From: Bacteroidales bacterium
GTDB lineage: Bacteria > Bacteroidota > Bacteroidia > Bacteroidales > WCHB1-69
Direction: 5' to 3'
NCBI GenBank assembly: GCA_031285725.1
Contig: JAITVP010000056.1
Span: 1 to 37,557 of the forward strand
DNA length: 37,557 bases
In this document: positions 4,975-26,248 of the stretch, piece by piece
How positions within the stretch are numbered: the stretch's first letter is position 1
Layout: every line of letters begins with the position of its first letter
The notes under the pieces: generated by a model
What the model was told of the DNA's origin: nothing
What the model saw: only the letters and a program-made list of their open reading frames with translations
Databases searched by the model: none
Translations under genes and position numbers: made by a program

Positions 4975-4982
4975 TACCTTTG
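4975..4982 (+). promoter_or_regulatory. -7 promoter box for lipoprotein/radical SAM pair
   Basis: TACCTTTG ends 24 nt upstream of ATG 5007. Confidence 0.65.
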
Positions 4983-5006
4983 CGCATCGTTAAAGATCCA
5001 AACACT

Positions 5007-5435
5007 ATGAAAAAAATCGAATTAAAAACAAGAAAATGGCTTCGTACTCTTTTTGGCTGTGTCAGTTTGACTGCCGTGGCTTTTGTATTTCAGGCGTGTT
5101 ATGGAACAGGTCCTGATGAGTCTTTTGATGTGAAATTGACAGGCATGGTGACTTCGAAAAGTACCAATTTGCCGGTAAAAGGAATAACTGTTACGGTCAA
5201 TGAAGGCATTAATTATGGAATTACCGATGAGGACGGCAATTTTGATTTTTACGCCAGCATTAAACCTTTTGATTATTATAAAGACAGTGTGCATTATACT
5301 CCCGACAGCGTGAGAATCAATTTTTTAGACACTGACGGCGTTGAAAACGGCTTTTTCGTTGACACGATGATCATCATCAACCCCGTTAGCCAAGATGAGG
5401 CGAAAATCTTTATGGAGTTGGAAGAAAAGCAGTGA
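5007..5435 (+). CDS. Radical SAM-associated putative lipoprotein (TIGR04134-like)
   Basis: Basic N-terminus, hydrophobic stretch, lipobox FQA-C followed by YG; carboxypeptidase-regulatory-like Ig segment (GMVTSK..PVKGI..TDEDGNF) and DTDGVENG motif; 4-nt overlap with the radical SAM gene. Confidence 0.8.
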   Translation: MKKIELKTRKWLRTLFGCVSLTAVAFVFQACYGTGPDESFDVKLTGMVTSKSTNLPVKGITVTVNEGINYGITDEDGNFDFYASIKPFDYYKDSVHYTPDSVRINFLDTDGVENGFFVDTMIIINPVSQDEAKIFMELEEKQ

Positions 5436-7671: not shown

Positions 7672-8718
7672 ATGAAAAGAGATTTTTTACTGATACTGTT
7701 GATTTTATTTACAACTTCAACTTTAGTAGCACAGTACACGGAGAAGGATATTCATTTGTATATCGAAAAGTATAAAGATCTGGCGATTCAGAAAATGTAT
7801 GAATATAAAATCCCGGCCAGCATTACGTTAGCACAAGGAGTTTTCGAGAGTGCTTGCGGCACCAGTCGTTTGGCAACTTATGGAAACAATCATTTCGGGA
7901 TAAAATGCCACAAAGAGTGGACGGGCGACACGCTGTTGGTGGATGATGATGCGCTGGGTGAATGTTTCCGGAAATACGAAAGGGTAGAGGAGTCCTTCAA
8001 CGATCACTCCCTTTTCTTGACGAGTCGTTCCCGCTACGAAAAGCTGTTCACGTTAGACATTATGGACTATGAAGCTTGGGCACACGGGCTTAAAACGGCC
8101 GGTTATGCGACCAATCCGCAATACGCCCACCGGTTGATCAGCCTGATCGAAAGGTTCGATATAGCCAAACATGATACTACTTATATAGAACGGTTGGAGT
8201 CAGGTTACTTTGAAAGGGAGGCGGAAGTAGAGCTGCAACCGCAAGTTACGGAAACGGTTACAGATAAAATTTCTATAGGGGACAAACCGGCGAAAGAGAC
8301 ACCGACAGCGGTGCAGGCAGGTTCACGGGTCTATTTCAAGGCGGATCCGAAGCAGTACAAACCGGTAAGCTATCCGTTTTCTGATCGTGCTGTGTATGAG
8401 AATAATAGAGTGCATTTTGTTATTACGGAAGAGGGGGAAACATTTGCGAGCATCGGGCAGGATGTGCAATTGACGGCGGCGGTCTTGCGGTCGTATAATA
8501 ACGCCGAGGCGGGCACTGAACCGCAACCGGGCGAGGTGATCTACGTGGAACGCAAGGTGAAAACCCACCCGATCGGTGTGCATATCGTGAAATCCGGTGA
8601 AACATTGCGCTTTATTTCGCAACAGTATGGAATAAGATTAGATATGCTATTGAGATACAATAATTTGAAGATAGATTCGATTATTCATCCGGAACAAGAA
8701 ATAAAACTTAAAAAATAG
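7672..8718 (+). CDS. GH73 glucosaminidase with C-terminal LysM domains (catalytic motifs intact)
   Basis: Signal peptide; IPASITLAQGVFES (catalytic Glu), NNHFGIKC and GYATNPQY; LysM HIVKSGETLRFISQQYGI. Confidence 0.9.
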   Translation: MKRDFLLILLILFTTSTLVAQYTEKDIHLYIEKYKDLAIQKMYEYKIPASITLAQGVFESACGTSRLATYGNNHFGIKCHKEWTGDTLLVDDDALGECFRKYERVEESFNDHSLFLTSRSRYEKLFTLDIMDYEAWAHGLKTAGYATNPQYAHRLISLIERFDIAKHDTTYIERLESGYFEREAEVELQPQVTETVTDKISIGDKPAKETPTAVQAGSRVYFKADPKQYKPVSYPFSDRAVYENNRVHFVITEEGETFASIGQDVQLTAAVLRSYNNAEAGTEPQPGEVIYVERKVKTHPIGVHIVKSGETLRFISQQYGIRLDMLLRYNNLKIDSIIHPEQEIKLKK

Positions 8719-8721
8719 ATT

Positions 8722-9792
8722 GTGAAAAAAATACTGTTTATTATCGTTTTTGTGGCACCGCTTTTTGCGTTTGCGCAATACAAAACGGAAGAAGTGCACC
8801 GCTATGTTGAAGAGTATAAAGACTACGCTGTCAAGCTGATGCGGGAAGAATTGATCCCGGCGAGCGTTCGTTTAGCGCAGGCCATCCACGCTACCGAAGC
8901 AGGAACCAATAAGCTCTGCATGGATGCCAACAACCACTTCGCTATCATGTGTCCCGACGACCACCAAGGGAGTAGTTTTACCGTGAAAGAGGGAACCAGC
9001 AAGAAGTGCTACCTCAGTTACCGTTACCCTGCCGTTTCTTGGGCAGATCATTCGATTTCCCTGCGGAGCAACGACCGTTTTGCGCCACTTTTCAAGTTGA
9101 ATGTAATGGATTACAAAGGATGGGCACAAGGCTTGCAACGGGGAAAATACAGCAACACCCCGGACTATGCAAACACCCTCATCAGTATCATTGAAAGTCA
9201 CGGTTTGGCACGGTTCGACACTGTGGCGATGCGGGAGTTGGAGGTGACGAAGAAGGCGACCGTTCCGGATAATGTTTATTCTGAATCTGGCATAGAGGTC
9301 GTTATGCAAAAGCAACCAAAACCAACGGTAGAGCAAGAGTGCAAAAAAGATTCCGTGGAAATAAAAATTGCGGAGGAGAAAATTGACTTGTTGTTGTCGG
9401 TTTTCACGGCGAAGGAGTTTGAATACAACCCTGTTTATTATCCTCATGCGAAACGGAATGTGTATGAAAATAACAAAGTGAAATTTGTGTTGGCCAAGTT
9501 GGGCGATAGCTACGAAGGCATTGCGCGCGAGTTGAATGTGCTCGAATCCGCTATCAGGGGATATAACGATGTTTTTGATCAAAACCTGAAACCCATTGCT
9601 GGTGAGGTAGTTTACATTGAGGCGAAAAACAAAAAATCGCCTGCTGAGTATCACACCATTAGCAAGGGGGAGAGTGCGCGATTTATCGCTCAAAAATATG
9701 CGGTGCCGCTGTCGTTGTTGTTCGAACGCAACAACGAAACGTATGATGCGTTCGGTGTGGGAAACGTAATTTGCATATCATGTAAAAAATAG
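8722..9792 (+). CDS. GH73-LysM paralog with degenerate catalytic motifs
   Basis: Aligns throughout with the upstream gene: IPASVRLAQAIHAT, NNHFAIMC, KYSNTPDY, VYENNKVKFV, LysM HTISKGES. Confidence 0.85.
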   Translation: MKKILFIIVFVAPLFAFAQYKTEEVHRYVEEYKDYAVKLMREELIPASVRLAQAIHATEAGTNKLCMDANNHFAIMCPDDHQGSSFTVKEGTSKKCYLSYRYPAVSWADHSISLRSNDRFAPLFKLNVMDYKGWAQGLQRGKYSNTPDYANTLISIIESHGLARFDTVAMRELEVTKKATVPDNVYSESGIEVVMQKQPKPTVEQECKKDSVEIKIAEEKIDLLLSVFTAKEFEYNPVYYPHAKRNVYENNKVKFVLAKLGDSYEGIARELNVLESAIRGYNDVFDQNLKPIAGEVVYIEAKNKKSPAEYHTISKGESARFIAQKYAVPLSLLFERNNETYDAFGVGNVICISCKK

Positions 9793-9794
9793 CG

Positions 9795-10760
9795 ATGTCC
9801 GATAAAGAATTTTATCATTTTAATCCGGAAACACTCTCTTTTGAGAAGAAAAAGATATCGATTAAGGATATTCTTAAAAAGGTAGTGTGGTTTGCCGCCT
9901 CGGCCTTGTCCTTTTCGGTGTTGGTATTGTGGATATCGTTCTATCTATTTGATTCTCCGAAAGAAAAAATGTTGCAACGGGAAAACAATGAACTGAAACA
10001 AGCGTTGAAAAGTGTGAATCGGCGGTTGGATGTGATGAACACGATGTTGTTGGATATTGAGGAGCGGGACGATGAGGTGTACCGTACCATTTTCGAGACC
10101 GATCCGATGCCGCGGGCCGTGAAGTTTTCTTCATTATACAAGCAAACGAAGTATGACGAGTTGAATTCCACGGAAGCGGCTTTGTTGTTGAATGAGATCA
10201 GAGGGAAGAGTGACCTGCTGACATTGCGGTTGGCGGAGGAGTCGCGGTCGTTAGACACGGTGATGGAGCTGGCGCAGTCGCAATCGGAGATGTTGGCCGC
10301 CATTCCGGCGATCCGTCCGTTGAAGAACATGTACCGGATTACCTCCGGGTTTGGCAACCGTTATCATCCGATTTTGAAGACATTGCGGCCCCATACGGGA
10401 ATTGACATCGCCGCGCCGAAAGGAACGCCGGTCTATGCCACTGCAGATGGTGTAGTTTCTTATGAAGCTGCAGGTTCGGGATATGGGATCACCGTGATCC
10501 TTAACCATGGGTATTCTTATCAAACGGTCTATGGCCATCTTTCGAAAAAAGTGGTGAAAGTTGGACAGAAAGTGAAACGAGGGCAAATTATTGGTTATGT
10601 TGGTAATACAGGTCTTTCGATGGGATCGCATCTCCACTATGAGGTCATCAAGGGTGGAAAGTATGTGAATCCGGTACACTATTTTTTCAGCGATATCACC
10701 CCGGAAGAGTATGACGAAATACTCAAATCATCACAAGAAGTAAATCAGGCTCTTTCATAA
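9795..10760 (+). CDS. M23/LytM metallo-endopeptidase (intact Zn ligands)
   Basis: N-terminal TM helix and coiled coil; HTGID, YGHLS and HLHYEV. Confidence 0.92.
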   Translation: MSDKEFYHFNPETLSFEKKKISIKDILKKVVWFAASALSFSVLVLWISFYLFDSPKEKMLQRENNELKQALKSVNRRLDVMNTMLLDIEERDDEVYRTIFETDPMPRAVKFSSLYKQTKYDELNSTEAALLLNEIRGKSDLLTLRLAEESRSLDTVMELAQSQSEMLAAIPAIRPLKNMYRITSGFGNRYHPILKTLRPHTGIDIAAPKGTPVYATADGVVSYEAAGSGYGITVILNHGYSYQTVYGHLSKKVVKVGQKVKRGQIIGYVGNTGLSMGSHLHYEVIKGGKYVNPVHYFFSDITPEEYDEILKSSQEVNQALS

Positions 10761-10761
10761 C

Positions 10762-11679
10762 ATGAAAATATTCAATAATATAAAATACTTTCTAAAAGCG
10801 ATCCGACGGAACTGGAAAAACAAGTATCGTTTGTTGATCCAAAATACGGATACTCATCAGAACAGGATATCTATCTTACTCAGTCCCAAGAATATATTCG
10901 TGTTATTGACTACATCGATTTTTATTTTGGTGCTGATTACCATTTTGTTGATAGCCTTTACGCCCTTGAAAGTGTATCTTCCTGGTTACACGCAACCCAA
11001 AGATTACCATGAATTTAGGCAATTGTCAGCAACGATGGATTCGTTGGATCAGGTGATTACCATCCATCAACAGTATATTGACAATTTTTATGATGTTTTG
11101 CACGGTCGTGACACGGAAAAGGAAGAGATGGTGGTGGCCATTAACGAGAAGATTGAGTCCAAGGAGGCGTTGAGTAATAAGGAAGTGCAGAAACGGTTGT
11201 CGACACGAGAGCGGATTTATGAGGAGGCGGAGATGATTCAAGAGGATGTCATCCATCAAAACAGCGTGCGGACGGTTTCTATTCCGTTGAGCAAACGGAA
11301 CGGGACGAGTTCATTACTCCTGTTACCGCCCACCCACGGCATCATTGCCGAGCGGTTTGATCCGACCAGTGGGCAAATGGGGATTGTCATTAAAAATCTT
11401 GCGGGTACGCTGATTTCTGCTACGTTGGATGGCGTGATCATCTTTGCAGGCTATGATCCGAAAGGAGGAAATACGGTTATCATACAGCATAACAATAACT
11501 TGTTATCGATCTACAAACATTGTGAGCAGCTGTTGAAAACGGTTTCCCAAAAAGTGAAAGCCGGCGAACCGATTGCAAAAATGGGCAACAGCGGACAAAC
11601 CGATGATGTCAATCTCTATTTTGAATTATGGTATAATGGCATTCAGGTGAACCCGTTGGATTATATGGTTGTTAACTAA
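10762..11679 (+). CDS. M23/LytM-domain protein with degenerate Zn site
   Basis: TM helix; LytM-fold motifs DGVIIFAG, GNTVIIQH, YKH, VKAGEPIAKMGNSG; HxxxD replaced by QMGIV and HxH by NLY. Confidence 0.85.
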   Translation: MKIFNNIKYFLKAIRRNWKNKYRLLIQNTDTHQNRISILLSPKNIFVLLTTSIFILVLITILLIAFTPLKVYLPGYTQPKDYHEFRQLSATMDSLDQVITIHQQYIDNFYDVLHGRDTEKEEMVVAINEKIESKEALSNKEVQKRLSTRERIYEEAEMIQEDVIHQNSVRTVSIPLSKRNGTSSLLLLPPTHGIIAERFDPTSGQMGIVIKNLAGTLISATLDGVIIFAGYDPKGGNTVIIQHNNNLLSIYKHCEQLLKTVSQKVKAGEPIAKMGNSGQTDDVNLYFELWYNGIQVNPLDYMVVN

Positions 11680-13774: not shown

Positions 13775-14546
13775 TAATAAACAAGGTAATCCGAAAATCG
13801 CTATCGTATTGGGTTCCGGTTTGGGAAATCTGGGGCAGATTGTGGAAAAATATGTCGAAATTCCATATAAGGATATTCCTGATTATCCGGTTTCCACGGT
13901 GCAAGGCCATGCCAGCACGTTCATTTTCGGCAAATTGAACGGTGTGGACATCGTGGTTCTCAACGGGCGGTTCCACTACTATGAAGGTTATGATATGAAA
14001 GAGGTGGTTTTACCGATTCAAGTACTGAAGGAGATTGGGATTGAGAAGCTGATCCTCTCTAATGCGGCGGGTGGCATGAACCCGACCTTCAAAGTAGGCG
14101 ATGTGATGATCATCAACGATCATATCAACTTGTTTGGTGACAATCCGTTACTGGGGAAAAATGAAGACAAGCTGGGTCCGCGTTTCTTGGACATGAGCGA
14201 GGCGTACTCCCGCGCCATGCGGAAAACCGCCTTCAAAGCGGCAAAGGAACACAAGTTGCACGTGCAGGAAGGTGTTTACATAGGGGTTTCCGGTCCGTGT
14301 TATGAAACGCCGGCCGAATACCGGATGTTCCACATCATGGGTGCCGATGCGGTGGGTATGTCCACCGTGCCCGAAACCATTATGGCGCGCTATCGGGGTA
14401 TGGAAGTTTTCGCTTTCTCCGTCATCACTGATTTAGGTATTGTGGGACAAGTGGAAAATGTTTCCCATGAGGAGGTGCTGAAAGCAGCACAAACCGCGGC
14501 GCCAGTGATGGAAAAGTTGGTTTTTGAAATGTTGCCTCAATTGTAG
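13734..14546 (+). CDS. Purine nucleoside phosphorylase (trimeric type)
   Basis: VLGSGLG, GRFHYYEG, NAAGG, GPCYETPAE and GADAVGMSTVPE. Confidence 0.93.
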   Translation: MLERVQKIAQFLNDNKQGNPKIAIVLGSGLGNLGQIVEKYVEIPYKDIPDYPVSTVQGHASTFIFGKLNGVDIVVLNGRFHYYEGYDMKEVVLPIQVLKEIGIEKLILSNAAGGMNPTFKVGDVMIINDHINLFGDNPLLGKNEDKLGPRFLDMSEAYSRAMRKTAFKAAKEHKLHVQEGVYIGVSGPCYETPAEYRMFHIMGADAVGMSTVPETIMARYRGMEVFAFSVITDLGIVGQVENVSHEEVLKAAQTAAPVMEKLVFEMLPQL

Positions 14547-14965
14547 ACCCGAAGGCGTAGCCCGTCATACTTTGTTTTATAATACTTAAGGGCGAGTTCT
14601 GATGGCCCGCTGATCGGAAGCCCGTCTAACACATTAAACTGTGATCCACAGCAACTATCGCTGAGGATCAATCCGTTGTCTTCCATTCGAATCCAAGCGT
14701 TGCTGTTTTCCCAGTCGTAAGGACACGCCCGGTCGTATGCGGCAAATGAGTCATAATCGACACGGTATACCACAATTCCGTTTACGCCGCCGGTGAAATA
14801 CATATACCCGCCATAGTGGTTCAACGCCGCATAGTTGGGATCGTTAGGATAGATAGTGAAGTCTACTTGCACACCCGGAATGGTTGGATGCACGTATTTT
14901 CCACATTTTATAGATATTACAAATAAAGAAAAAACGATAATGGGGAATAATATTCTCCTTTTCAT
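14537..14965 (-). CDS. Rieske-like (His-less) putative lipoprotein
   Basis: Lipoprotein-like signal ISIK-C; GGVNGIVVYR..AYDRACPY..DSCCGSQF..DG.P..GP...L..Y pattern of Rieske-fold Bacteroidetes proteins; alternative start 14980. Confidence 0.65.
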   Translation of the reverse strand: MKRRILFPIIVFSLFVISIKCGKYVHPTIPGVQVDFTIYPNDPNYAALNHYGGYMYFTGGVNGIVVYRVDYDSFAAYDRACPYDWENSNAWIRMEDNGLILSDSCCGSQFNVLDGLPISGPSELALKYYKTKYDGLRLRVYN

Positions 14966-14990
14966 GGATTCTTTTTTCATGGATTCTTTT
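14961..14990. repeat. Perfect 15-bp tandem duplication (TTCATGGATTCTTTT x2)
   Basis: 14961-14975 is identical to 14976-14990; each copy holds a minus-strand ATG. Confidence 0.9.
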
Positions 14991-15049: not shown

Positions 15050-15448
15050 ATGGATATTATCAAAATCCTCTTTCCCATCGTTGCGGCCTTGTTCTATTTT
15101 TATCTCACCAGTAGGAAAAAGAAGAATGAGGAATCCCCGCCTCCTATTTTTGAATACGATGACGAGTACGAAGAACAGTGTCGGGAAAACCCATCGGGAA
15201 AGGCTGTTTCTGCTGATTTTTTTGAAGAAAAGCACACGATTCCTCCTAAAAAAGGAGAATTTGTGAGTTATGATGAACTCGGTCAAGAGAAGTGGGAAGA
15301 AGAAAACTCCCGAATGAAAATAGAAGAACGCATGGCATATTCTTTTGATAATGAGGAAGAAAACGAGTTGGTGATTTCAACCGACATTGAAAATATACGG
15401 CAAGGGATCATTTATGCGGAAATTCTGAAAATACCTTATAAACAATAA
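15050..15448 (+). CDS. Membrane-anchored acidic hypothetical protein
   Basis: N-terminal TM helix plus basic stop-transfer, acidic linker, and conserved-looking C-terminus IRQGIIYAEILKIPY. Confidence 0.75.
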   Translation: MDIIKILFPIVAALFYFYLTSRKKKNEESPPPIFEYDDEYEEQCRENPSGKAVSADFFEEKHTIPPKKGEFVSYDELGQEKWEEENSRMKIEERMAYSFDNEEENELVISTDIENIRQGIIYAEILKIPYKQ

Positions 15449-15561
15449 GTTGTGTAAAAAAATGAATTTTACGTTTGGAAAGGTTAGTGGCGGTGTATAT
15501 TTTTTATAAATTTACCGCCCCAAAATGCAGATAAAATTTTATGTATGTTTAATATAAATTA

Positions 15562-18500
15562 ATGGCTATGATTAAAAAATTACTCTTATCAATTGGAGTG
15601 TTCCTTTGTTGCATAGGTTTTGTCTACCCACAGGCTATGATCAAGGGTGTGATTTCAGACAACGAAGGGAATGCGTTAGGAATAGCGCAAGGACAAGTTT
15701 TCCTAATTCAAGAAGGTGTCACGATTCGGGACGTGTTCACGGATGGCAACGGGGCATACCAATTTCCAAATCTACAATCAGGGACATACGATGTTAGGGC
15801 AGTTCATCTTGTTTCTGGAAAAGATCAAACCGTTGCGGGTATCAGGGTAAATCCTGACGCTATTGTGACGGAGGACATTAAAATTAACTTATCTTCGGAT
15901 GCCACCGTGTTACAGTCGGTTACGATTACCCACAGAGCTCCGATTATTGATCCGAATTCTACTGTTGCGGCCACAACCATTGACGGGAAGCAATTACAGA
16001 AATCTCCAGGTCGTGATTTGACCAAGGCACTGGCTTCTGCTGATGGAGTGAGTTCTGTGGATGGTGACATCAAGTCGGTGCGTGGTAACCGTTCAGACGG
16101 TCAAGTGGTAATTATCGACGGAGTGCGGGTGCGTGGTAGCGCATCCGTGGCGATGCAATCCATGGATGCGGCGCAGTTGATTCAAGGAGGGATTCCTGCC
16201 GAGTACGGCGATGGTACCAGTTTCCAGGTTTACAGTACCCGCGGTGTGCCGAAAAACTTCGCCTCTAGCGTTGAGTTCCGTGGTTCCGTAGACGGATACA
16301 ATAACTTCTTGGGTGCGGTTTCCGTTTCCGGTCCTATCGTGCGCAGCGACAGTAACAAGAAAGCCCGTATCGGTTTCATGTTGTCGGGCGAAGGTTACTT
16401 TAACCAAGATAATAGGCCAATGCGCGGCGGCACATGGAGAGCCACCGACGAAACCATTCAAAGTTTGAGGGAAACCCCCCTGCAATACAGTTTGACCGAT
16501 CTCGGTGCCTCCTCCTCTCCGGCAAATTATTTGTTGGAAGACGCTTTTGAGAAAAAAAGGGTAAGACAAAATGCTGAAAATTGGGGATACATCGTGCAAG
16601 GTAAAATCGACATCCAACCCATAAAAAGCACGGATGTGGTAAAAGCAAACAGCCTTAGACTCAGTTTGAACGGATCGTATGATTATGGGAAAGGTAAAAA
16701 CTGGAGTTTGGCGAATTCAATGTTCAATGTGGCCAACAACTCGGTGTATGACAACTCAACGTTGCGCTTGTTTGCTAGAGTGAATCACATGGTGGTGAAT
16801 AGTACCGATGAAAAAAAACTCTTGAAAAACTTAACCTATGACATCAATGTAAGCTACACGAAATACAATTACTCTACTTATGATAATAACTTTAAAGACA
16901 ACCTCTTCGCATACGGACATATTGGTAAATTCACGACAAGCTTAATGGATAGGTACCAATTGAGTTCATTTACAGATACCAATGGAATAGAATATGATGA
17001 TGTATGGGTAATGAATAGAAGAAATGATCCCTATTTTGTGGCTTTCACTCCGGGAGAATATAATCCGGATTTGGCGCAATACAACCGGATGCTTTTGGAT
17101 AATTTTGGACCGGAAACGGTAGAGGAATATTTCGGAATTCCCTACAATAAAGTTGCGTATCAACAATTTGGAGGTCTACTCAATGGGGAATCGCCGAGTA
17201 CGCTTTACAGTATGTATTATCTGCCAGGAATTCGCTCCAGCGGGTATCAAAAATCCGAAATAACCGCTTGGGGGGCGAAAGCGAGCCTGTCTATGAACTT
17301 GGGAAACCATGAAATTAAGTTGGGTTTTGAATTTGATCGACCCACAGAAAGAGGATATAGCATCTCGGCAGCCCCTCTGTGGACATTGATGAGAGGTCTT
17401 GTCAATACCCATTTTGCAGAACTTGATTTTGCGAATTATTCTTTCGTAGGAGAAGACTCGATAAGTTTCGGACTGCAAAACAACCTGGACGCTCAAAGTA
17501 CGTTTGATCGTAAACTGAGAGAAAAACTGGGTTATGATCCCAATGGAACCGACTGGATTGATGTGGACAACTTGGATCCCTCAACATTTGATGTGTCCAT
17601 GTTGTCGGCGGAAGACCTTTTGGTCGGTACAACCGCTACCGGTGGTAGCATGATACAATATTATGGATATGATTATACGGGAAAAAACAAGTATAACAAG
17701 AAAACCGACATTACCGATTTCTTCAACGCGAAGGATGCGAACGGACAAAGAACTTACAATATAGGTGCTTACGAGCCGGTTTACATGGCGATGTATTTGC
17801 AGGACAGGTTCTCTATCAGAACGTTGGTGTTTAACGTGGGTGTCCGTATCGACCGCTTCGATGCGAACCAATCCGTATTGAGAGACCCCTATTTGTTCAG
17901 ACCGGCTCACACGGTGGGATCCATCAAGGAAGATTTCGATGTGTCAAGCAACCTGTTTGTGGCCAATGCCCAAGATGATTGGGTAGTGTATGTGAATCAA
18001 CGTGACGAGATGTTGAACTTGGACGAATCCAACATCGTTGGGTATCGTAGCGGGGATACATGGTATGATGCGAATGGGCAAGAAGTGACCGACCCGGACG
18101 CATTATTAGGAGCCAATGGCGGGCCGGCTTTGGTGAGCGCTATTGATAACACTCTGATCTCCAAAGTGGATGAAAAAGCATTCATGGATTATGAAACACA
18201 ATGGTCCATTATGCCCCGTCTCTCATTCTCTTTCCCCGTTTCTACCAAATCCCGTTTCACGGCACACTATAATATTATCACCAGTCGTCCCACCAACTTG
18301 CGGTTGGAGCCGATTAGCTATCTGTTTGTTGAAAAATATGGCAAAAACCAAAACAATGTCATCAACAATCCTAATTTGAAATCTCAAAAAAGTATCGACT
18401 ATGAAGTGGGATTCGCACAAGCATTAGGCGATAACGCTGCGATCAATATTACGGCTTACTATTCTGAAAAACGCAATATGATCCAGTCGTATCGCTACAC

Positions 18501-19305
18501 ACAAGCATATCCGAGCACGTACTATTCGTATGCCAATATGGACTTCGGTACTGTGCAGGGTTTATCTTTAAGCTATGTCATGAGAGAGATAAAAAACATT
18601 TCATTGCGCGCAGGCTATACTCTCCAGTTTGCTAAAGGTACCGGTTCGACCGCTGGTTCCAACTTGGCGATCATCCAATCCGGTCAGCCTAACTTGAGAA
18701 CTCTGACTAATTTGGAATTTGACCAACGGCACAGATTGAACATGAGCGTGTCTTACACGTCACCGTCAGGGCAAGAATACGACGGACCCAAAAGCGTGAA
18801 GAAATTGAGCGACTCGACCAAAAAGGAAATCAGATGGTTCGAAGGTTTTGGCGTATCCTTGGTGTTCTCTGCGGCTTCAGGATTGCCATATAGCAAATCC
18901 AGCGTGGCCTATTCCGGAATTGTCAGCGGCCTGGGATCCTCTCGCCTCTCCGGAACCATCAATGGTTCACACAGACCTTGGACATACCAATGCGACTTGC
19001 GGATCGACAGAACCTTTAAATTGGGTGGAAAAACCAAAGACGACGGTAAAAAAAGAAAAACCACCGACTTGATGGTGTATGTTGATGTGACCAATCTCTT
19101 TAACTTCAAAAATGTGTTGTCGGTATATACATATACTGGAAATGCCGATGATGACGGTTATTTGACTGCATCCGAATACGAACAACAAATCAAATCACAA
19201 CTTTCCGTGGAATCTTACAAATGGTATTATGGAATGAGAGTTAAAAATCCTTACAATTACAGCGCACCAACGAGAGTTAGTTTAGGTTTCATGTTTTTAT
19301 TTTAA
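15562..19305 (+). CDS. TonB-dependent receptor-like outer-membrane protein with N-terminal carboxypeptidase-regulatory-like domain
   Basis: Signal peptide; KGVISD..TDGNGAYQF..GTYDV domain; TonB-box-like LQSVTIT; plug VRGNRSD..IDGVRV..GGIPAEYGD; barrel motifs YLQD, GVRIDRFD, PRLSFSFP, NPNLK; C-terminal Phe. Confidence 0.88.
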   Translation: MAMIKKLLLSIGVFLCCIGFVYPQAMIKGVISDNEGNALGIAQGQVFLIQEGVTIRDVFTDGNGAYQFPNLQSGTYDVRAVHLVSGKDQTVAGIRVNPDAIVTEDIKINLSSDATVLQSVTITHRAPIIDPNSTVAATTIDGKQLQKSPGRDLTKALASADGVSSVDGDIKSVRGNRSDGQVVIIDGVRVRGSASVAMQSMDAAQLIQGGIPAEYGDGTSFQVYSTRGVPKNFASSVEFRGSVDGYNNFLGAVSVSGPIVRSDSNKKARIGFMLSGEGYFNQDNRPMRGGTWRATDETIQSLRETPLQYSLTDLGASSSPANYLLEDAFEKKRVRQNAENWGYIVQGKIDIQPIKSTDVVKANSLRLSLNGSYDYGKGKNWSLANSMFNVANNSVYDNSTLRLFARVNHMVVNSTDEKKLLKNLTYDINVSYTKYNYSTYDNNFKDNLFAYGHIGKFTTSLMDRYQLSSFTDTNGIEYDDVWVMNRRNDPYFVAFTPGEYNPDLAQYNRMLLDNFGPETVEEYFGIPYNKVAYQQFGGLLNGESPSTLYSMYYLPGIRSSGYQKSEITAWGAKASLSMNLGNHEIKLGFEFDRPTERGYSISAAPLWTLMRGLVNTHFAELDFANYSFVGEDSISFGLQNNLDAQSTFDRKLREKLGYDPNGTDWIDVDNLDPSTFDVSMLSAEDLLVGTTATGGSMIQYYGYDYTGKNKYNKKTDITDFFNAKDANGQRTYNIGAYEPVYMAMYLQDRFSIRTLVFNVGVRIDRFDANQSVLRDPYLFRPAHTVGSIKEDFDVSSNLFVANAQDDWVVYVNQRDEMLNLDESNIVGYRSGDTWYDANGQEVTDPDALLGANGGPALVSAIDNTLISKVDEKAFMDYETQWSIMPRLSFSFPVSTKSRFTAHYNIITSRPTNLRLEPISYLFVEKYGKNQNNVINNPNLKSQKSIDYEVGFAQALGDNAAINITAYYSEKRNMIQSYRYTQAYPSTYYSYANMDFGTVQGLSLSYVMREIKNISLRAGYTLQFAKGTGSTAGSNLAIIQSGQPNLRTLTNLEFDQRHRLNMSVSYTSPSGQEYDGPKSVKKLSDSTKKEIRWFEGFGVSLVFSAASGLPYSKSSVAYSGIVSGLGSSRLSGTINGSHRPWTYQCDLRIDRTFKLGGKTKDDGKKRKTTDLMVYVDVTNLFNFKNVLSVYTYTGNADDDGYLTASEYEQQIKSQLSVESYKWYYGMRVKNPYNYSAPTRVSLGFMFLF

Positions 19306-19325
19306 TCAAGGAAAAACAAAAAGAT

Positions 19326-22300
19326 ATGAGAAATATAAGTAAAATAGTTTTTTTAGTGGTCACACTTGCAGTTTTTGGTATTAGCCAACTGCATGCTGAA
19401 AAAAGTAGATATGTGATCCCCAAGGCGGCTCAACCGCGTTCAATCGGAACCTGTTTGCCTGCCTCAAACTCCAATGAATTAACAATTAATAACGTTAGAG
19501 CCTATTTGGAGACCAACGGTACCATGTGGTTTATCGAGACCGCGGAATATGAAGTTCCGAAAGGCTCCGGAAAGACCTCCATGTTCTGTGCAGCGTTGTG
19601 GATCGGTGGACGCGATGTGAACCAACAGTTGAAATTGGCTGCGGTTCGTTTCCGCCAAAACGGGGATGACTTTTGGACTGGTCCGCTCTCTACCATAGAC
19701 GCTACGATTTCACAACAAACCTGTATCGAATACGACAGATTCTTTAAGATCACCCGGGCTGAAGTGGAAGCGCATATCGCCAACTGGGAACGCCCTGATT
19801 ATACCATGCCGTCGATTATTCGGAATTGGCCGGCTCATGGTGACGTGTCTTTAGGACAATCTATGTTCTTGGCACCTTACTTTGATGGAAATGGGAATAA
19901 AAAATATGAGCCGGATCTCGGAGATTATCCTTATTACGATTTGGAAAACGAATTGTGTCCGTGGACAGCGGAGAATAAAGAGCTGGCTATTGCCGGACAA
20001 CTCCCCAAAACTCCCGAAGAATCAGCAGGAATTTCAACAGGGATGGTCTATGCCGATCATGTGTTGAAAGGGGATGAAACATTATTCTGGGTATTTAACG
20101 ACAAGGGTAACACACATACCGAAACCGGCGGTGAACCCATCGGATTGGAAATCCGCGGACAGGCGTTCGCTTTCGCTACCAATGACGAGCTGAACAACAT
20201 GACGTTCTATTCTTACGAGATCATCAACCGTTCCACGTATGAATTAACTAATACCTATTTTTCCCAATGGGTTGACCCTGATTTAGGATATTCGAAAGAT
20301 GATTATGTGGGTTGCGATGTTAGCAGGGGATTAGGGTATTGCTTCAACGGAAAAGATGTTGACGGACAAGGGGAAATCTTTGCCTATGGTTCACAGCCTC
20401 CGGCAGTTGGCGTGGACTTCTTTCAAGGACCTTACATTGATCCCGAACCCGAAAACATGTACGACAGACCGAAATTTAACATCGACTCCGTGTCTTATCC
20501 GGGATATTGTGAAAAATATGTGAATCATGAATATAATCAAATGTCAATCAATGGGGTGAACTTCGGCGATGGTATTCCCAACAATGAACGTTTTGGGATG
20601 AGACGTTTCGTGTATCACAACAATGACAATTCCGTTGTGGGGGATCCAAGTGTGGCTTATGAATACTACAATATGTTGCAAGCTATTTGGAAAGATAATA
20701 CGAGAATGCGTTACGGAGCAAACGGCCATCCGAGTAATGGAGCTAATGGCCCTGAGTGTGATTTCATGTTTCCGGGATTGACCGACCCATGTAACTGGGG
20801 AACGAAAGGGATTGACCCTAATCCCTTACAATACAGTGAAGATGGTTGGACCGAACCCGGTGTGGGCAATGCGCCGGAAGACCGGCGTTTCATGCAGTCC
20901 GCAGGACCTTTCACTTTGAAAGCCGGAGCGGTTAACTATATCACCGTGGGTATTCCATGGGCAAGAGCTTCCTCCGGTGGTGCTTGGGCATCTGTGGAAT
21001 TGCTGAAAACAGCCGACGACAAATGCCAAGCGTTGTTTGAAAACTGCTTCAAAGTACTTGACGGTCCCGATGCACCGGATGTGACCGTTCGCGAATTGGA
21101 AAATCAATTGATTCTTTACCTAAGCAATGATGATCCGTTAAGCAATAACCACAATGAAGGGTATAATGAAAATGACAATCAAATTCTGGCAGAACGGGAA
21201 ATCATTACAGAAGTGGAAATTCAAGATACCAACTGGATTACAGTGGGTGCGGTTGACACTTTTATAGTTGAAACCAAAACGGTGAAACAAATCACAACGG
21301 TAGACAATGATAGAACATACCGTTTCGAAGGGTATCAGATCTATCAATTGAAAAACAAAGACGTGAGCGTGACCGATTTGAACAACGCCGACTTGGCGCG
21401 TTTGGTTCGTCAATGTGACATTGAAAATTATAAAGAAAATGGTTCGGGTATCGCTCGATTGGTGAATTGGACTTACGATGATGTCGCAGGTACTTCCGTG
21501 GCGAAACCCATGGTGGATGGTGCGAATGCGGGCATTTCCCACTCGTTTCCTATTACCGAGGATGCGTTTGCTACAGGTAGTAATAGGATTTTGGTAAATC
21601 ATAAAGTGTATTATTTTATGGTGATCGCTTATGCTCACAATGAATATTTTCCTTTTTCCTTGGATAATGGTGCTGAAGGATTGACTGGACAAAAAACTCC
21701 TTATCTGGCAGGTAGAAAGAATATCAAAGTCTATTCGGGCATTCCCCATTCACCCGCTCCGCAATCGGAAGGAACAATTCTGAACGCTCAATATGGCACC
21801 CAACCCATGATCACCCGGATCGAAGGGCAGGGGAACGGTGGATTTTTCCTGGATTTGGTTGATGAAGATCGTGAAAAAATCTTGAAAGAAAATACAGTTC
21901 AACAGATCACCTATAAAAACAACTATGGCCCGTTGAACATTAAAGTGATTGACCCGTTGCAAGTGAAACCGTTCGACTATGAAATCAAATTCGTAGAATT
22001 AGGCGCAAAGGATGTTACTGACTCAACCTATTGGGTGATGACAATTGTGAACGCTACAGATGAAGAGATCATTGCCGCAGGTGCTTATACCGAGGATGCA
22101 CATGGAGTTAAAACAGCTATCAGGGAATATAGATCCGCTGTGCCGATCTCTCAGAAAAACGAGCAGTTGATTCTTAGCTTAGGTATCTCCATCTCTATTT
22201 TGGATTACGGTTTTCAAGTTCACCAGAGCGAAATTGCAGATTGGGTGAACAACAATTCCTCATGGACCTATGCGAACAAAGCAAGATATGCGCAAGTGGA

Positions 22301-24050
22301 CTTTTTAGGAAGTTCAATCACTTATGCGGATGAATCCAAACCGTGGTTTGCCGGTGTGCCGGATAGCGAAGGGAACAATCAAAGCAACTGGATTCGCTCG
22401 GGACTGCAAACCGCTGGTGCTTGGCAAGCTCTTAGCAGTGCGGATCAAGGAGTGAAGGATGTCTATTCTCAATGGAAAACAGAAGATATATTCATGGTGG
22501 TGAAAGACACCAATTTGAATGCCGGTGGATGGGAATCCCGCGTGTGGAAAGATCCGGAAGGACAATTCGAAGGCGTGCTCGGTGGCACGTGGGCACCCTA
22601 TGTGTTGTCTTCCCCTTACGATGGTGGGCCTCAAGCAAAATACATTAATCCGGAAACCGATGGTGTTACGGAACCCACGCCCGCTTATTTTAATTTTAAA
22701 GACCCTTCTTCGTTTGCAGTGGGTGGCCCCGGATACAATCAAACCATGACCAATTTATATTCCGTGGACATCGTGTTAACCTCCGACAAGGATAAATGGA
22801 CACGTTGTGTCGTGTTGGAAGCGTGCGAAGACAGGACGTTGTCTGAAGGCGGCGCATTGAAACACGAACCGAGAAAAGCCCCCTCTGTGGACAAATACGG
22901 CAACACGGATATCAATAATCCTGTGGCAAGCAATGATCCGAATTCTCCAAACTACATCAGCGCTACCGGAATGGGTTGGTTCCCCGGTTATGCGGTGAAT
23001 GTGGAAACCGGTGAAAGACTAAACCTTATGTTCTCTGAAAATTCTTCCGATGGGGATAATAAAGGTAATGATATGTTGTTTAACCCCACCGGTATTTATG
23101 GTTATTTCATTGGACAGTGGAATGGAAACGATACTGTTATGCCGTTAAACCAAGTGTCATTCAATAGCCTTTATCCACCTCCGGTTAATGCTAACTATGA
23201 GCTGAAGTTGGCGTGGGGTGGAATGCACTTTGTTTTCGTTTGCAACAGTGCCGGAAACACAGCCTCTACCTACTACAAGGTCGCAAGTGCGAACAAGGAA
23301 CGCAACTATAACGATAATAACTTGACAACTTATAGCCAAGGGTATACTCATGGCGGAACGATAGCAGATGGTAAATCTTACTATGAGTGCGGTCCTTATG
23401 ACCAAGGTCAATGGTTGTTGGCGAAGTTCAATACTTTCGTTGGCGAAGGAACAGGCACAGCGAAGGTGCAAATGCAAAAAATGCAATTGTTTAACAATGT
23501 GATGTGGACTAGCATCGCCATGCCGGCGTCTGGACAGGAAGACAATTGGCTTTCCAATAATGCGATACTGAAATTGCGCGTTTCCCGTCCTTACATGAGA
23601 TACTCTTCTCGCTGGTTTGACGATCCGAATCAATCCGGTGCGGCGGGCAGCAATTCCGGATACCCGATGTACAGTTTCACCACGAGAAACATTGCGCCGA
23701 CAACACAAGCTACCTCGCAACACGATCAAATCTTGGAAGACATTAATATTGTTCCCAATCCTTACTACGGATTCTCCACCTATGAATCCACAGCATTGGA
23801 AACTTACGTGAAAATTGTTAATCTCCCCGAAAAATGTACCATCTCGATCTTCACGGTCAATGGACTTTTGGTGAGGAAAATCACCAAAGGGGATGAGGGA
23901 ACGACTCACGTTGCTTGGAATTTGAAGAACAACGCAAATGTGCCTATCGCCAGTGGTATGTATATTATCCATGTTAATGCTCCAGGAATTGGGGAACGGA
24001 CGTTGAAGTTCTTCTGTGCGATGAGACCCACCGACTTAAATGCGTTTTAA
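19326..24050 (+). CDS. Large secreted protein with T9SS C-terminal-domain-like tail
   Basis: Signal peptide; conserved-looking blocks (INNVRA, YEVPKGSGK, DPDLG..DDYVGCD, GVDFFQGP, DRRFMQSAGPF); Fn3-like PDAP..FEGYQIY..YYFMVIAY; tail VPNPY..NLP..CTISIFTVNG.LVR..WNLKN..IASGMYIIHV. Confidence 0.85.
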   Translation: MRNISKIVFLVVTLAVFGISQLHAEKSRYVIPKAAQPRSIGTCLPASNSNELTINNVRAYLETNGTMWFIETAEYEVPKGSGKTSMFCAALWIGGRDVNQQLKLAAVRFRQNGDDFWTGPLSTIDATISQQTCIEYDRFFKITRAEVEAHIANWERPDYTMPSIIRNWPAHGDVSLGQSMFLAPYFDGNGNKKYEPDLGDYPYYDLENELCPWTAENKELAIAGQLPKTPEESAGISTGMVYADHVLKGDETLFWVFNDKGNTHTETGGEPIGLEIRGQAFAFATNDELNNMTFYSYEIINRSTYELTNTYFSQWVDPDLGYSKDDYVGCDVSRGLGYCFNGKDVDGQGEIFAYGSQPPAVGVDFFQGPYIDPEPENMYDRPKFNIDSVSYPGYCEKYVNHEYNQMSINGVNFGDGIPNNERFGMRRFVYHNNDNSVVGDPSVAYEYYNMLQAIWKDNTRMRYGANGHPSNGANGPECDFMFPGLTDPCNWGTKGIDPNPLQYSEDGWTEPGVGNAPEDRRFMQSAGPFTLKAGAVNYITVGIPWARASSGGAWASVELLKTADDKCQALFENCFKVLDGPDAPDVTVRELENQLILYLSNDDPLSNNHNEGYNENDNQILAEREIITEVEIQDTNWITVGAVDTFIVETKTVKQITTVDNDRTYRFEGYQIYQLKNKDVSVTDLNNADLARLVRQCDIENYKENGSGIARLVNWTYDDVAGTSVAKPMVDGANAGISHSFPITEDAFATGSNRILVNHKVYYFMVIAYAHNEYFPFSLDNGAEGLTGQKTPYLAGRKNIKVYSGIPHSPAPQSEGTILNAQYGTQPMITRIEGQGNGGFFLDLVDEDREKILKENTVQQITYKNNYGPLNIKVIDPLQVKPFDYEIKFVELGAKDVTDSTYWVMTIVNATDEEIIAAGAYTEDAHGVKTAIREYRSAVPISQKNEQLILSLGISISILDYGFQVHQSEIADWVNNNSSWTYANKARYAQVDFLGSSITYADESKPWFAGVPDSEGNNQSNWIRSGLQTAGAWQALSSADQGVKDVYSQWKTEDIFMVVKDTNLNAGGWESRVWKDPEGQFEGVLGGTWAPYVLSSPYDGGPQAKYINPETDGVTEPTPAYFNFKDPSSFAVGGPGYNQTMTNLYSVDIVLTSDKDKWTRCVVLEACEDRTLSEGGALKHEPRKAPSVDKYGNTDINNPVASNDPNSPNYISATGMGWFPGYAVNVETGERLNLMFSENSSDGDNKGNDMLFNPTGIYGYFIGQWNGNDTVMPLNQVSFNSLYPPPVNANYELKLAWGGMHFVFVCNSAGNTASTYYKVASANKERNYNDNNLTTYSQGYTHGGTIADGKSYYECGPYDQGQWLLAKFNTFVGEGTGTAKVQMQKMQLFNNVMWTSIAMPASGQEDNWLSNNAILKLRVSRPYMRYSSRWFDDPNQSGAAGSNSGYPMYSFTTRNIAPTTQATSQHDQILEDINIVPNPYYGFSTYESTALETYVKIVNLPEKCTISIFTVNGLLVRKITKGDEGTTHVAWNLKNNANVPIASGMYIIHVNAPGIGERTLKFFCAMRPTDLNAF

Positions 24051-24086
24051 CATTATTAATCAGAGAAATTTTAATATTAAGAAATT

Positions 24087-25283
24087 ATGAATAATACATA
24101 TAGAACATTAATAATCGTTGCCTTGGTAAGTTTCTTTGCCGCATCCACTTCCGTTTTTGCGGGGAACAGGGACCGTGCGGGGCAGGCAGGCGCACAGCAT
24201 TTGCTTATCGACCCTTGGGCAAGATCTAACGGCTGGGGATCCGCCGGTGTTTCAGAAATTACCGGTTTGGAATCCATTTACACAAATATCGCCGGCATCG
24301 CGCGTGGACAAAACACGGAATTTGGATTCTCTCACACGCAATATCTTTCCGGTTCCGATGCTGGAATTAGCATCAACTCTTTCGGTGTGGTTCAGAGGTT
24401 GGCACGGAAAATCAAAGAAGGCGATCGCGTGAAAGAAACAAAAGAACTTGGTTATATCGGAGTATCTTTGTACACTATGAGTTTTGGGGATATTAAAAGA
24501 ACCACGGTAGATCAACCCGAAGGAAACATGGGTACATTTTCGCCCACGTTGAGCTACATTGGAATCCATTATGCCTATAAGTTTAACCGCTACATCAGTG
24601 CCGGTGCCAGCGTGAAAATCGTGACTGAGTCTATCGCTGACGTGAAAGCGGGCGGCGTTGCTATTGATGCGGGCGTGCAATACGTGGCTGGTTGGATGGA
24701 AAACTTCCGGATCGGCGTGGTGTTGAAAAATATCGGATTGCCGATCAGCTACAGCGGTGATGGTCTTTCTGTGAAAGGTTTTGTTTCCAATACGAATCAC
24801 GAAATTACAATGGAGCAACGTTCAGCGGAGGCTGAAATGCCCGTGCAGTTGACTATCGGTTTGTCGTATGACTTCTTGTTCTTTGGCGGAACCGCTTACG
24901 AAGGTCTCACAAGAGACGAGCGGAAAAAAAACGAAGCCGATTTGACCCGGAAAGACGCGTCTCACCGTTTGACGTTGGCCGGATCCTTCACTGCGAACTC
25001 CTATTCTCGCGACCAATTTGTATTGGGTCTTGAATACGGGATGGGTTACAAAGAAGGTATTGGCGACATCTTCCAATTGCGTGCGGGTTATACCCTTGAA
25101 GGCGGTATGTGGGATATCGAGGCAGCTGACACTTGGTATGCTGGTCCTTGTGCTGGCGCTTCTTTCGCTATTCCTTTGGCTAAGAAAAAACAAGGCGTTC
25201 AAAAAATATTGCTTGATTACGGGTATAGATTTACTAACAAATGGAAAGGTAATCATTATATTGGCATCAAAGTAGCCATTTAA
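24087..25283 (+). CDS. PorV/PorQ-family outer-membrane beta-barrel
   Basis: Signal peptide; AGAQHLLIDPWARSNGWG..NIAG N-terminal motif; SAGASVK, GVAIDAGVQY, GVVLKNIG, LRAGY and DYGY. Confidence 0.82.
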   Translation: MNNTYRTLIIVALVSFFAASTSVFAGNRDRAGQAGAQHLLIDPWARSNGWGSAGVSEITGLESIYTNIAGIARGQNTEFGFSHTQYLSGSDAGISINSFGVVQRLARKIKEGDRVKETKELGYIGVSLYTMSFGDIKRTTVDQPEGNMGTFSPTLSYIGIHYAYKFNRYISAGASVKIVTESIADVKAGGVAIDAGVQYVAGWMENFRIGVVLKNIGLPISYSGDGLSVKGFVSNTNHEITMEQRSAEAEMPVQLTIGLSYDFLFFGGTAYEGLTRDERKKNEADLTRKDASHRLTLAGSFTANSYSRDQFVLGLEYGMGYKEGIGDIFQLRAGYTLEGGMWDIEAADTWYAGPCAGASFAIPLAKKKQGVQKILLDYGYRFTNKWKGNHYIGIKVAI

Positions 25284-25307
25284 TAGTTAAATTTCCTTAT
25301 TCATCTT

Positions 25308-25348
25308 AAATTAAGGAGGCTTTTCCAAGCCTCTTTAATTTTTGTTTT
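25308..25348 (+). terminator. Rho-independent terminator closing the receptor/CTD/PorV operon
   Basis: AAATTAAGGAGGCTT-TTCC-AAGCCTCTTTAATTT stem (one G-U pair) followed by a T-rich run. Confidence 0.8.
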
Positions 25349-25367: not shown

Positions 25368-25841
25368 ATGAGCACAATAAAATATTATTCACAAGATAGT
25401 CTGGACGCTTTGAAAAAGGAATTGAATGAATTGGAAACGATTGAACGTCCCAAAATATCGGCGGCGATTGCGGAAGCGCGAGACAAAGGCGACCTCTCCG
25501 AAAATGCCGAGTATGATGCGGCTAAGGAAGCCCAAGGTTTGTTGGAATTGAAAATCGTAAAACTGAAAAACCTCGTGGCCAATGCGAGATTGCTGGACGA
25601 GTCCAAATTGGATACCTCCAAAGTCTTGATCTATTCCATCGTAAAAATTAAAAACTTGGGCAATAATGCCATGATGACTTACACGCTGGTGCCGGAATCC
25701 GAAGCGGATTTGCGGTCAGGGAAAATATCGGTTACCTCGCCCATTGGAAAAACGCTGTTGGGCAATGCGGCTGGCAACACCATCACCGTGGATGCGCCGG
25801 CCGGAAAAATGCAGTTTGAAATCATTGAAATATCCCGTTAA
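25368..25841 (+). CDS. greA: Transcription elongation factor GreA
   Basis: ARDKGDLSENAEYDAAKE and ISVTSPIGK. Confidence 0.97.
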   Translation: MSTIKYYSQDSLDALKKELNELETIERPKISAAIAEARDKGDLSENAEYDAAKEAQGLLELKIVKLKNLVANARLLDESKLDTSKVLIYSIVKIKNLGNNAMMTYTLVPESEADLRSGKISVTSPIGKTLLGNAAGNTITVDAPAGKMQFEIIEISR

Positions 25842-25843
25842 TT

Positions 25844-26248
25844 ATGAGTACTCTATTTTCGAAAATTGTAAATGGCGAAATTCCTTCCTATAAAATTGCT
25901 GAAAATAATAGATTTTACTCTTTTTTGGACATCGCCCCGCTCACCAAAGGCCACGCCTTGGTAATTCCCAAAATCGAAGTGGATTACATTTTTGATTTGG
26001 AAGATAACCTGCTCGCTGAAATGACTGTTTTTGCGAAAAAAGTGGCGCTGGCCGTCGAGAAAAACGTAGAATGCCAGCGGATCGGTGTGGCGGTATTGGG
26101 AATAGAGGTCCCCCATGCCCACATCCATCTCATCCCGATTGTACGGGGTGACGAGATCAATTTCCAACAAGAGCGAATTAATTTGTCGAAAGATGAATTT
26201 TCCGAGTTGGCAAACAAAATTTTGAATACCTTTGAGCAAAATTTATAG
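25844..26248 (+). CDS. HIT family nucleotide hydrolase
   Basis: FSKIVNGEIP, FLDIAP..GHALVIPK and PHAHIHLIP histidine triad. Confidence 0.95.
   Translation: MSTLFSKIVNGEIPSYKIAENNRFYSFLDIAPLTKGHALVIPKIEVDYIFDLEDNLLAEMTVFAKKVALAVEKNVECQRIGVAVLGIEVPHAHIHLIPIVRGDEINFQQERINLSKDEFSELANKILNTFEQNL

Follow-up and report, generated by a model that had tools for sequence, protein, structure and literature searches.

Nutrient uptake across the outer membrane of Bacteroidota is understood almost wholly through SusC/SusD-type pairs of a transporter and a lipoprotein, and the secretion system of type IX (T9SS) is viewed as a pathway that carries enzymes, adhesins and its own attachment complex. Within this secretion system PorV is described as a shuttle at the SprA translocon, and PorP/SprF serves SprB. 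Here, we have analysed a stretch of 37,557 nt (the window), which is the whole of contig C143 of a Bacteroidales-labelled source genome (G000; 2.11 Mb, 94.6% complete), and we focus on three adjacent genes within it that encode a TonB-dependent receptor (TBDR), a 1574-aa secreted protein, which we refer to as the cargo, and an outer-membrane barrel of the PorV/PorQ family. We give an even chance to the reading that this trio is a T9SS-dependent, SusD-independent uptake module, in which the barrel would tether the cargo beside the transporter as its capture or processing partner.

TonB-dependent transporters, T9SS C-terminal domains (CTDs) and PorV-family barrels are all already known, as is the principle by which a barrel holds a CTD protein. 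For Bacteroidota, PMC12578637 treats the association of a TonB-dependent transporter with a surface lipoprotein as a general principle, whilst a review (PMC10202324) describes the CTDs of PorU and PorZ as remaining on PorV and PorQ, and suggests that such CTDs are protected by cognate PorV-like barrels. These two papers and PMC12611786 are those drawn on for comparison here. A preliminary description of this DNA knew of no functional account of such a trio, and our own search, which did not cover subscription journals, likewise found none; nor did it find a description of the fixed combination of these parts with a transporter, of the distinct CTD subclass, or of the use of such modules in multiple copies without SusD.

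Three adjacent genes and their conserved order

The trio occupies three open reading frames (ORFs) of the forward strand (1247, 1574 and 398 aa), with 20 nt between genes 1 and 2 and 36 nt between genes 2 and 3. Together with the hairpin that follows gene 3, these coordinates bear out the co-oriented genes, short spacers and clear terminator that were described previously, and the trio is likely to form one transcription unit. The features are as follows.

15562..19305, forward strand: gene 1, a TonB-dependent-receptor-like outer-membrane protein of 1247 aa, assigned by its Pfam domains; not SusC/RagA
19326..24050, forward strand: gene 2, the secreted protein (cargo) of 1574 aa, below the cut-off of every Pfam and NCBIfam family
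19326..19397, forward strand: signal-peptide-like N-terminus of the cargo, residues 1-24 (...ISQLHA/EKS), judged by eye
19443..21056, forward strand: N-terminal module of the cargo, residues ~40-577, a predicted galactose-mutarotase-like beta-supersandwich with large insertions (model m4cf70f76d0ac)
21276..23717, forward strand: middle region of the cargo, residues 651-1464, predicted mostly beta (model me1f5df03bbba)
23718..24023, forward strand: T9SS type-A-like CTD of the cargo, residues 1465-1566, of a distinct "trio" subclass, nearest to the PorZ and PorU CTDs
24024..24047, forward strand: eight-residue tail RPTDLNAF after the CTD, with the consensus RPxDLxxF from the alignment
24087..25283, forward strand: gene 3, a PorV/PorQ-family outer-membrane barrel of 398 aa, in an orthogroup separate from PorV and PorQ
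25308..25341, forward strand: intrinsic-terminator-like hairpin (15-pair stem, 4-nt loop, T-rich tail), which closes the three-gene unit
15470..15477, forward strand: promoter-like TACGTTTG, within the 113-nt gap 5' of gene 1, fitting the Bacteroidota -7 consensus

The association of the three genes extends well beyond the source genome, which itself holds one copy of each. The cargo belongs to a large family: at E<=0.001 there were matches to 6336 of 8000 scored candidates and to 7065 cluster representatives at 50% identity, 2126 of which matched at E<=1e-30, and the best 120 relatives are 56-68% identical to the cargo over its full length. Across a phylum sample, the order TBDR, cargo, barrel was present at 18 of 20 loci, the two exceptions being second cargo copies in genomes that also carry a trio. 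When an alignment of eight closer sequences was used as the query, 79 named loci were obtained, of which 59 have enough sequence on either side; the full trio is found at 54 of these 59. Of the five exceptions, four consist of a cargo paralogue standing alone, and the fifth is a second copy that follows another cargo-barrel pair. The co-occurrence that had been anticipated for the three genes is thus borne out by both sets of loci. Seven of nine extra cargo copies keep the full CTD (135-166 bits). At three loci (L052, L072 and L057) a second full-length cargo lies directly after the PorV-like gene, giving the order TBDR-cargo-barrel-cargo2, and this second cargo keeps the trio-type CTD.

The family is broadly but unevenly distributed. 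The N-terminal module of the cargo was found at E<=1e-20 in 69 of the 151 genomes of the order sample. A cargo match at E<=0.001 was obtained for 159 of the 301 genomes in the phylum sample, a figure which overstates the range of the orthologue because many of these matches cover the CTD alone. PorV was present in 236 of the 301 genomes. In family f22 it was found in none of 63 genomes and the cargo in one, by a marginal match, and apart from this match the cargo family is found only where PorV is found. The families of the usual model organisms are nearly devoid of it (none of 22 genomes in f8 and one of 16 in f7), which may explain why it has been overlooked. A cultured carrier of the trio does exist, Acidiluteibacter ferrifornacis S-15 (L069), and so the module is directly testable.

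Gene 1 passes the cut-offs of three Pfam families, namely TonB_dep_Rec_b-barrel (48.5 bits; cut-off 27), Plug (26.4; 23.9) and CarboxypepD_reg (32.3; 32.3). These are laid out as CarboxypepD_reg at residues 27-107, Plug at 133-219 and a beta-barrel Pfam stretch at 625-1068, and the protein ends in a C-terminal Phe. Its domains are those of a TonB-dependent transporter: an N-terminal extension in the style of SusC, followed by plug and barrel. Conservation of the plug motifs extends across 74 orthologues. There was no match to the SusC/RagA model TIGR04056 at E<=0.01, Pfam reported no STN signalling domain, and a search of PDB sequences returned no match. Elsewhere in the source genome, short stretches of contig C47 (7788-8051 and 9782-9913) are 61-68% identical to residues 102-192 of this receptor, the region of its candidate TonB box and its plug.

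Gene 3 belongs to the PorV/PorQ family (NF033709; 107.2 bits against a cut-off of 90, and 106.4 in the genome search) and scores far under the equivalog models for PorV (NF033710; 40.8 bits, cut-off 250) and PorQ (NF033711; 53.8, cut-off 220). No Pfam family, PorP_SprF included, matched it at E<=0.01, and the search of PDB sequences gave no match here either. We considered whether gene 3 might be the PorV or PorQ of its genome, and rejected this on account of these low equivalog scores and the presence of canonical copies of PorV on contig C165 (471.1 bits) and PorQ on C107 (341.3 bits). The preliminary description had named it as fatal to its proposal if the barrel were the only canonical PorV of the genome, and this is not the case. 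A tree of 35 barrels (26 chosen from 77 trio barrels, and nine other PorV-family proteins of G000 and G213) places the window barrel in a clade of 14 members, all from orthologous trios (SH-aLRT 99). The two PorV sequences (99) and the two PorQ sequences (97) group separately from it, and the backbone of the tree is unresolved. The source genome encodes a further PorV-family paralogue on contig C17; the idea that it belongs to a second trio was rejected, its only neighbours of note being tgt and a DeoC-family gene.

The Bacteroidota -7 promoter consensus is TAnnTTTG. Matches of this type number 21 in the window against 27.8 expected and, since the motif is not enriched, TACGTTTG at 15470-15477 offers a positional hint only. 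A sigma-70 promoter scan of the window was at chance level, with 20 sites against 22.2 expected.

The cargo protein and its C-terminal domain

A T9SS-like CTD had been proposed for the cargo from the outset, and this needs some care, as the domain falls below the curated cut-offs of both TIGR04183 (17.9 bits; cut-off 23) and FlgD_ig (16.5; 27). Because of these low scores, confirmation was sought through a profile of the cargo family and through structure, and on both counts the proposal stands. The family profile matches the PorZ CTD by sequence (E 1.9e-5), and the predicted structure has the CTD beta-sandwich fold at the C-terminus of the cargo, ending eight residues before the end of the protein. 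Compared with PorZ, this domain gives Z 12.0 (rmsd 2.0 over 92 aa, 25% identity) and with PorU Z 10.4, against at most 8.5 for the CTDs of ordinary cargo proteins (8.5 for that of mirolase and 7-7.9 for those of NucA and RemA). By its modelled structure, the cargo CTD is T9SS type-A-like and most like the CTDs of PorZ and PorU. The RPxDLxxF tail that follows it is a conserved feature of the orthologous group and is absent from the CTDs of paralogous trios.

We also ran the CTD profile on 46 proteins in the course of the work on one complete genome (G213). All seven of the middle proteins of its trios scored between 53 and 114 bits, and one further protein, at a locus where a TBDR gene precedes the barrel gene, scored 62.8. 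Five other CTD proteins, PorU among them, reached 25.5 bits at most, and two proteins with the Pfam domain Por_Secre_tail were not matched at all. Among the 4267 ORFs of the source genome, the cargo scored 168 bits and the runner-up 19.6. By these sequence scores, the CTDs of trio proteins form a distinct subclass.

The cargo was folded as two parts, residues 25-650 and 651-1574. The first is predicted with confidence (pLDDT 90.0, pTM 0.89), and its closest matches by VIA-align are the N-domains of dextran dextrinase (Z 17.7, rmsd 3.1 over 254 aa) and of glucodextranase and glucoamylase (Z 17.5 and 17.3), followed by those of GH65 and GH94 enzymes (Z 15-16) and mutarotase-like proteins (Z ~12). 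These alignments span only 230-254 of the 626 residues, at 7-12% identity, and Foldseek gave weak matches only for this module (TM <=0.30). By its modelled fold, the N-terminal module is a carbohydrate-enzyme-associated sandwich. The acidic blocks singled out in the preliminary description as conserved-looking all lie inside this module, DPDLG at residues 317-321, DDYVGCD at 325-331 and DRRF at 519-522, the stretch from 317 to 331 corresponding to window positions 20274-20318. Their conservation holds, with D317, D319, L320, G321, D325, D326, G329, D519 and R521 invariant in 18 aligned relatives. In order-level relatives (for example G422:C42 and G367:C3) there are ORFs of ~550-800 aa that carry the supersandwich module alone (matching residues 247-575), with several such ORFs per genome in some of them.

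The second part is modelled at a pLDDT of 83.3 and contains a block conserved within the class, GWFPGYA..ETGERLN, at residues 1215-1233. An ESM Atlas search with residues 640-1460 returned unnamed clusters only, and no catalytic domain was recognised anywhere in the cargo by Pfam, NCBIfam, profile or fold searches.

Paralogous modules and the setting of the window copy

Matches to the cargo that cover its CTD alone proved informative as to the wider class to which the trio belongs. In other classes of the phylum there are paralogous trios whose middle proteins differ, in several copies per genome. When those from families f29 and f32 were fetched, all six loci showed a TBDR gene followed by a gene for a protein of 1143-1569 aa and then by one for a PorV-like barrel, with the body of the middle protein unrecognisable in comparison with the cargo. 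We examined 14 PorV-family loci in G213, 13 over the cut-off and one just under it. Seven of them are trios of a TBDR, a middle protein and a barrel, one of which is the orthologue of the window trio; the others comprise one porU-porV locus, two loci with a TBDR gene directly before the barrel gene and a CTD protein further upstream, two lone barrels, one CTD protein with two barrels, and one PorP/SprF-like barrel. At L130 (G213:C1:467600-478100), a 2375-aa protein with 15 CarboxypepD_reg repeats and a weak CTD is followed directly by a PorP/SprF-like barrel. Several PorV-family barrels of this genome (L117-L121) also match UPF0164, a Pfam family described from Treponema, and these matches hint at PorV-like barrels outside the phylum.

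Across the seven trios of G213 (21 pairs), distances are correlated between TBDR and barrel (r 0.70), TBDR and CTD (r 0.89) and CTD and barrel (r 0.60), with permutation p values of 0.002-0.007. These correlations show that the three genes diversified as modules; they do not by themselves imply contact between the proteins. Some of the trio paralogues have sugar genes as neighbours: one lies beside UxaC and a major facilitator superfamily (MFS) transporter, one beside an RpiR regulator and DcuC, and one beside GatZ/KbaZ, PfkB, aldolase and SIS genes. No match to the SusD families PF07980, PF14322 and PF12771, and none to SusC/RagA TIGR04056 over its cut-off, was found in G000, G213 or G128, and in G036 and G018 SusC over the cut-off and SusD_RagB matches occur together with trios. 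The source genome does contain eight partial N-terminal SusC/RagA matches, all under the cut-off and none on the window contig. If it does not reflect an assembly gap, the apparent lack of SusC and SusD in a Bacteroidales-labelled genome would be unusual for the order. Within this wider class of TBDR, CTD-protein and PorV-like modules, the window copy stands as the single, most conserved member.

Two genes of the setting recur with the trio within the class and lie outside the module.

25368..25841, forward strand: greA, assigned by Pfam
25844..26248, forward strand: HIT-family gene, assigned by Pfam

Of 77 trio loci, 66 have a greA-like gene downstream of the barrel gene and 63 have a HIT-family gene there. 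Of the 11 loci that lack the greA-like gene, eight are the loci from other classes, one has room for it and two do not. This conserved synteny indicates that the locus is vertically inherited and probably constitutive. A Pfam scan of the 26 other ORFs of the window found no SusD, CAZyme, regulator, catabolic or inner-membrane transport gene flanking the trio. The earlier statement that no SusD lipoprotein, CAZyme or regulator lies nearby is therefore correct for the flanking genes and has to be tempered further afield, where two Glucosaminidase-LysM hydrolase genes lie ~6 kb upstream; greA itself is directly downstream.

Other features of the window are recorded here for completeness. A 147-aa ORF on the reverse strand (14537-14980), divergent from the trio and upstream of it, recurs at 21 trio loci; neither it nor a second small ORF (15050-15448) matched any NCBIfam or Pfam family. 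Directly after ddl, the forward strand carries two tandem Glucosaminidase-LysM genes and then two tandem Peptidase_M23 genes (7672-11679), which look like duplicated cell-wall hydrolases. On the reverse strand, 34864-37521 encodes an 885-aa protein with CUB, PKD and SprB-repeat matches and a CHU_C (type-B) T9SS C-terminal domain. Finally, within 4980-6571 on the forward strand, a 151-aa ORF with a weak match, under the cut-off, to TIGR04134 (radical SAM-associated putative lipoprotein; 25.9 bits) overlaps the beginning of a radical SAM/SPASM gene, and the two may be a small peptide-maturation pair.

A possible uptake module, its alternatives and known systems

If the three genes encode one outer-membrane module, as we suppose, then the cargo would be exported by the T9SS, of which the two components searched for in the source genome, PorV and PorQ, are both present. 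Its CTD would remain uncleaved and stay on the gene 3 barrel, as that of PorZ does on PorQ and that of PorU on PorV, so that a protein of 170 kDa would be kept at the cell surface by the barrel, adjacent to the transporter. The supersandwich, with its invariant acidic pocket, may then capture or process a glycan-like substrate and pass it to the transporter, and the cargo would thus be to the transporter what SusD and other surface lipoproteins are to SusC. The preliminary description had put forward a similar idea, of a T9SS cargo held by its own PorV paralogue as an alternative uptake or sensing machine. Its uptake half gains support from the co-occurrence of the genes, the dedicated paralogue, the PorZ/PorU-like CTD, co-divergence and the sugar-related contexts; its sensing half is unsupported, no signalling domain and no sigma or anti-sigma gene having been seen. 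A trans-envelope signalling system, with gene 1 as a TonB-dependent transducer of a surface signal, has the presence of a TonB-dependent receptor in its favour and nothing more. With no STN domain reported by Pfam for gene 1 and no ECF sigma or anti-sigma gene next to the trio in the Pfam scan, we find it hardly credible.

Several observations weigh against an uptake module and need to be kept in view. The TonB box of gene 1 is a candidate chosen by eye (residues ~116-124) and is only moderately conserved across the 74 orthologues. The fold of the N-terminal module says nothing about function, and the middle ~800 residues of the cargo have no assigned fold, three fold searches with the model of residues 651-1574 having listed almost only the CTD. 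With its best 120 relatives 56-68% identical, the cargo is also unusually conserved for a surface substrate-binding protein. Co-divergence of paralogues is also to be expected from duplication of whole modules without any binding between their products, and the sugar-gene contexts belong to paralogues of another class rather than to the window orthologue. The window trio itself sits among housekeeping genes, with no catabolic, regulatory or import neighbours, and in this it is unlike typical substrate-induced uptake loci.

This last point is shared with the view that the trio serves the envelope or a surface structure, in which the cargo would be a barrel-tethered coat, adhesin or envelope-maintenance protein and the TBDR a platform or an importer of an envelope compound. 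The housekeeping context with its class-wide greA/HIT synteny (greA-like gene at 66 of 77 loci), the single copy in a reduced 2.1-Mb genome and the very high conservation of the cargo all suit such a role. A precedent is available in the BamG-BamH pair of the Bacteroidota BAM complex, where a FadL-like barrel holds a surface protein. We nevertheless consider an envelope role unlikely, since paralogous modules occur in sugar-utilisation contexts and the plug motifs are conserved as in working transporters; moreover, 69 of the 151 genomes in the order sample carry the cargo family, which is thus missing from roughly half of them and is not essential. It is likewise improbable, in our judgement, that the barrel is a cargo-specific shuttle, with the CTD cleaved and the cargo released, or attached to lipopolysaccharide (LPS), as an enzyme whose products the transporter imports. 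PorV is described as a substrate-binding shuttle in PMC12578637, and PorP/SprF-like barrels as serving specific substrates in PMC10202324. The order of cargo and cognate barrel is the same as that of PorU and PorV in G213, and many glycoside hydrolases and phosphorylases contain a domain with the supersandwich fold. However, the fold matched is that of a non-catalytic N-domain, with no catalytic domain recognised beside it, and the cargo CTD is nearer to the two retained CTDs than to cleaved ones. The CTD is also among the most conserved parts of the cargo between classes, as would be expected more of a lasting partner than of a disposable signal.

It might also be argued that the genes are independent, and that their adjacency reflects chance or inherited gene order; kin do share gene order, and many of the loci come from related metagenome-assembled genomes. 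Yet the order persists across classes despite a diverged cargo body (all six loci), there are seven paralogous copies in G213, the components co-diverge, and the spacers are tight with a single terminator, all of which makes independence very improbable.

The uptake module that we favour would, if confirmed, link TonB-dependent transport with T9SS delivery, give dedicated PorV paralogues a defined job and explain the transporter equipment of SusD-less members of the phylum. It would also offer a role for a large family (7065 representatives) that is without a functional name. More tentatively, and with the balance of probability against it, the combination of a TBDR, a trio-CTD protein and a PorV-like barrel could represent another way of capturing substrates at TonB-dependent transporters, found throughout the phylum and either predating SusC/SusD or existing in parallel with it. 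Its surface partner would be delivered by the T9SS and held by a dedicated barrel in place of a lipid anchor, and such modules could supply the main high-affinity glycan importers of the lineages in which no SusD was found (G213, G128 and G000).

The trio shares features with several known systems. Residues ~40-577 of the cargo share their fold with galactose mutarotase and with the N-terminal supersandwich domains of GH15, GH65 and GH94 enzymes (Z 17.7 to 12), but in the cargo no catalytic domain follows, and the alignment covers only 230-254 of the 626 residues, with 7-12% identity. As with SprB-SprF and other type-B CTD proteins that have PorP/SprF-like barrels (PMC10202324), a cargo-specific barrel is encoded directly downstream of the cargo; unlike them, the trio barrel matches PorV/PorQ and not PorP_SprF, the CTD is type-A-like, and no gliding-motility context was seen. 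In BamG-BamH, the surface protein is held through the extracellular loops of a 14-stranded FadL/PorV-like barrel (PMC12578637), an arrangement to which that of the trio may be likened; the trio differs in lacking a BamA context and in having a partner that carries a T9SS CTD.

There is also a resemblance to the T9SS attachment complex, PorU-PorV and PorZ-PorQ, in which a CTD protein is paired with a PorV/PorQ-family barrel and the CTD structures are the nearest to that of the cargo; in the porU-porV locus of G213, too, the gene for the CTD protein precedes that for the barrel. The trio barrel nevertheless forms a separate orthogroup, the cargo has neither a Peptidase_C25 domain nor a PorZ-like body, and the trio includes a TBDR gene and has no known role in secretion itself. 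With SusC/SusD (RagA/RagB), the trio shares a TBDR with a CarboxypepD_reg-type extension encoded beside a large, putatively surface-exposed partner, and its paralogues are likewise found in sugar-utilisation loci. It differs in that its TBDR does not match the SusC/RagA model, with no SusD found in the window or in G000, and in that its partner is a signal-peptide protein with a T9SS CTD rather than a lipoprotein, accompanied by a third gene that encodes a PorV-family barrel.

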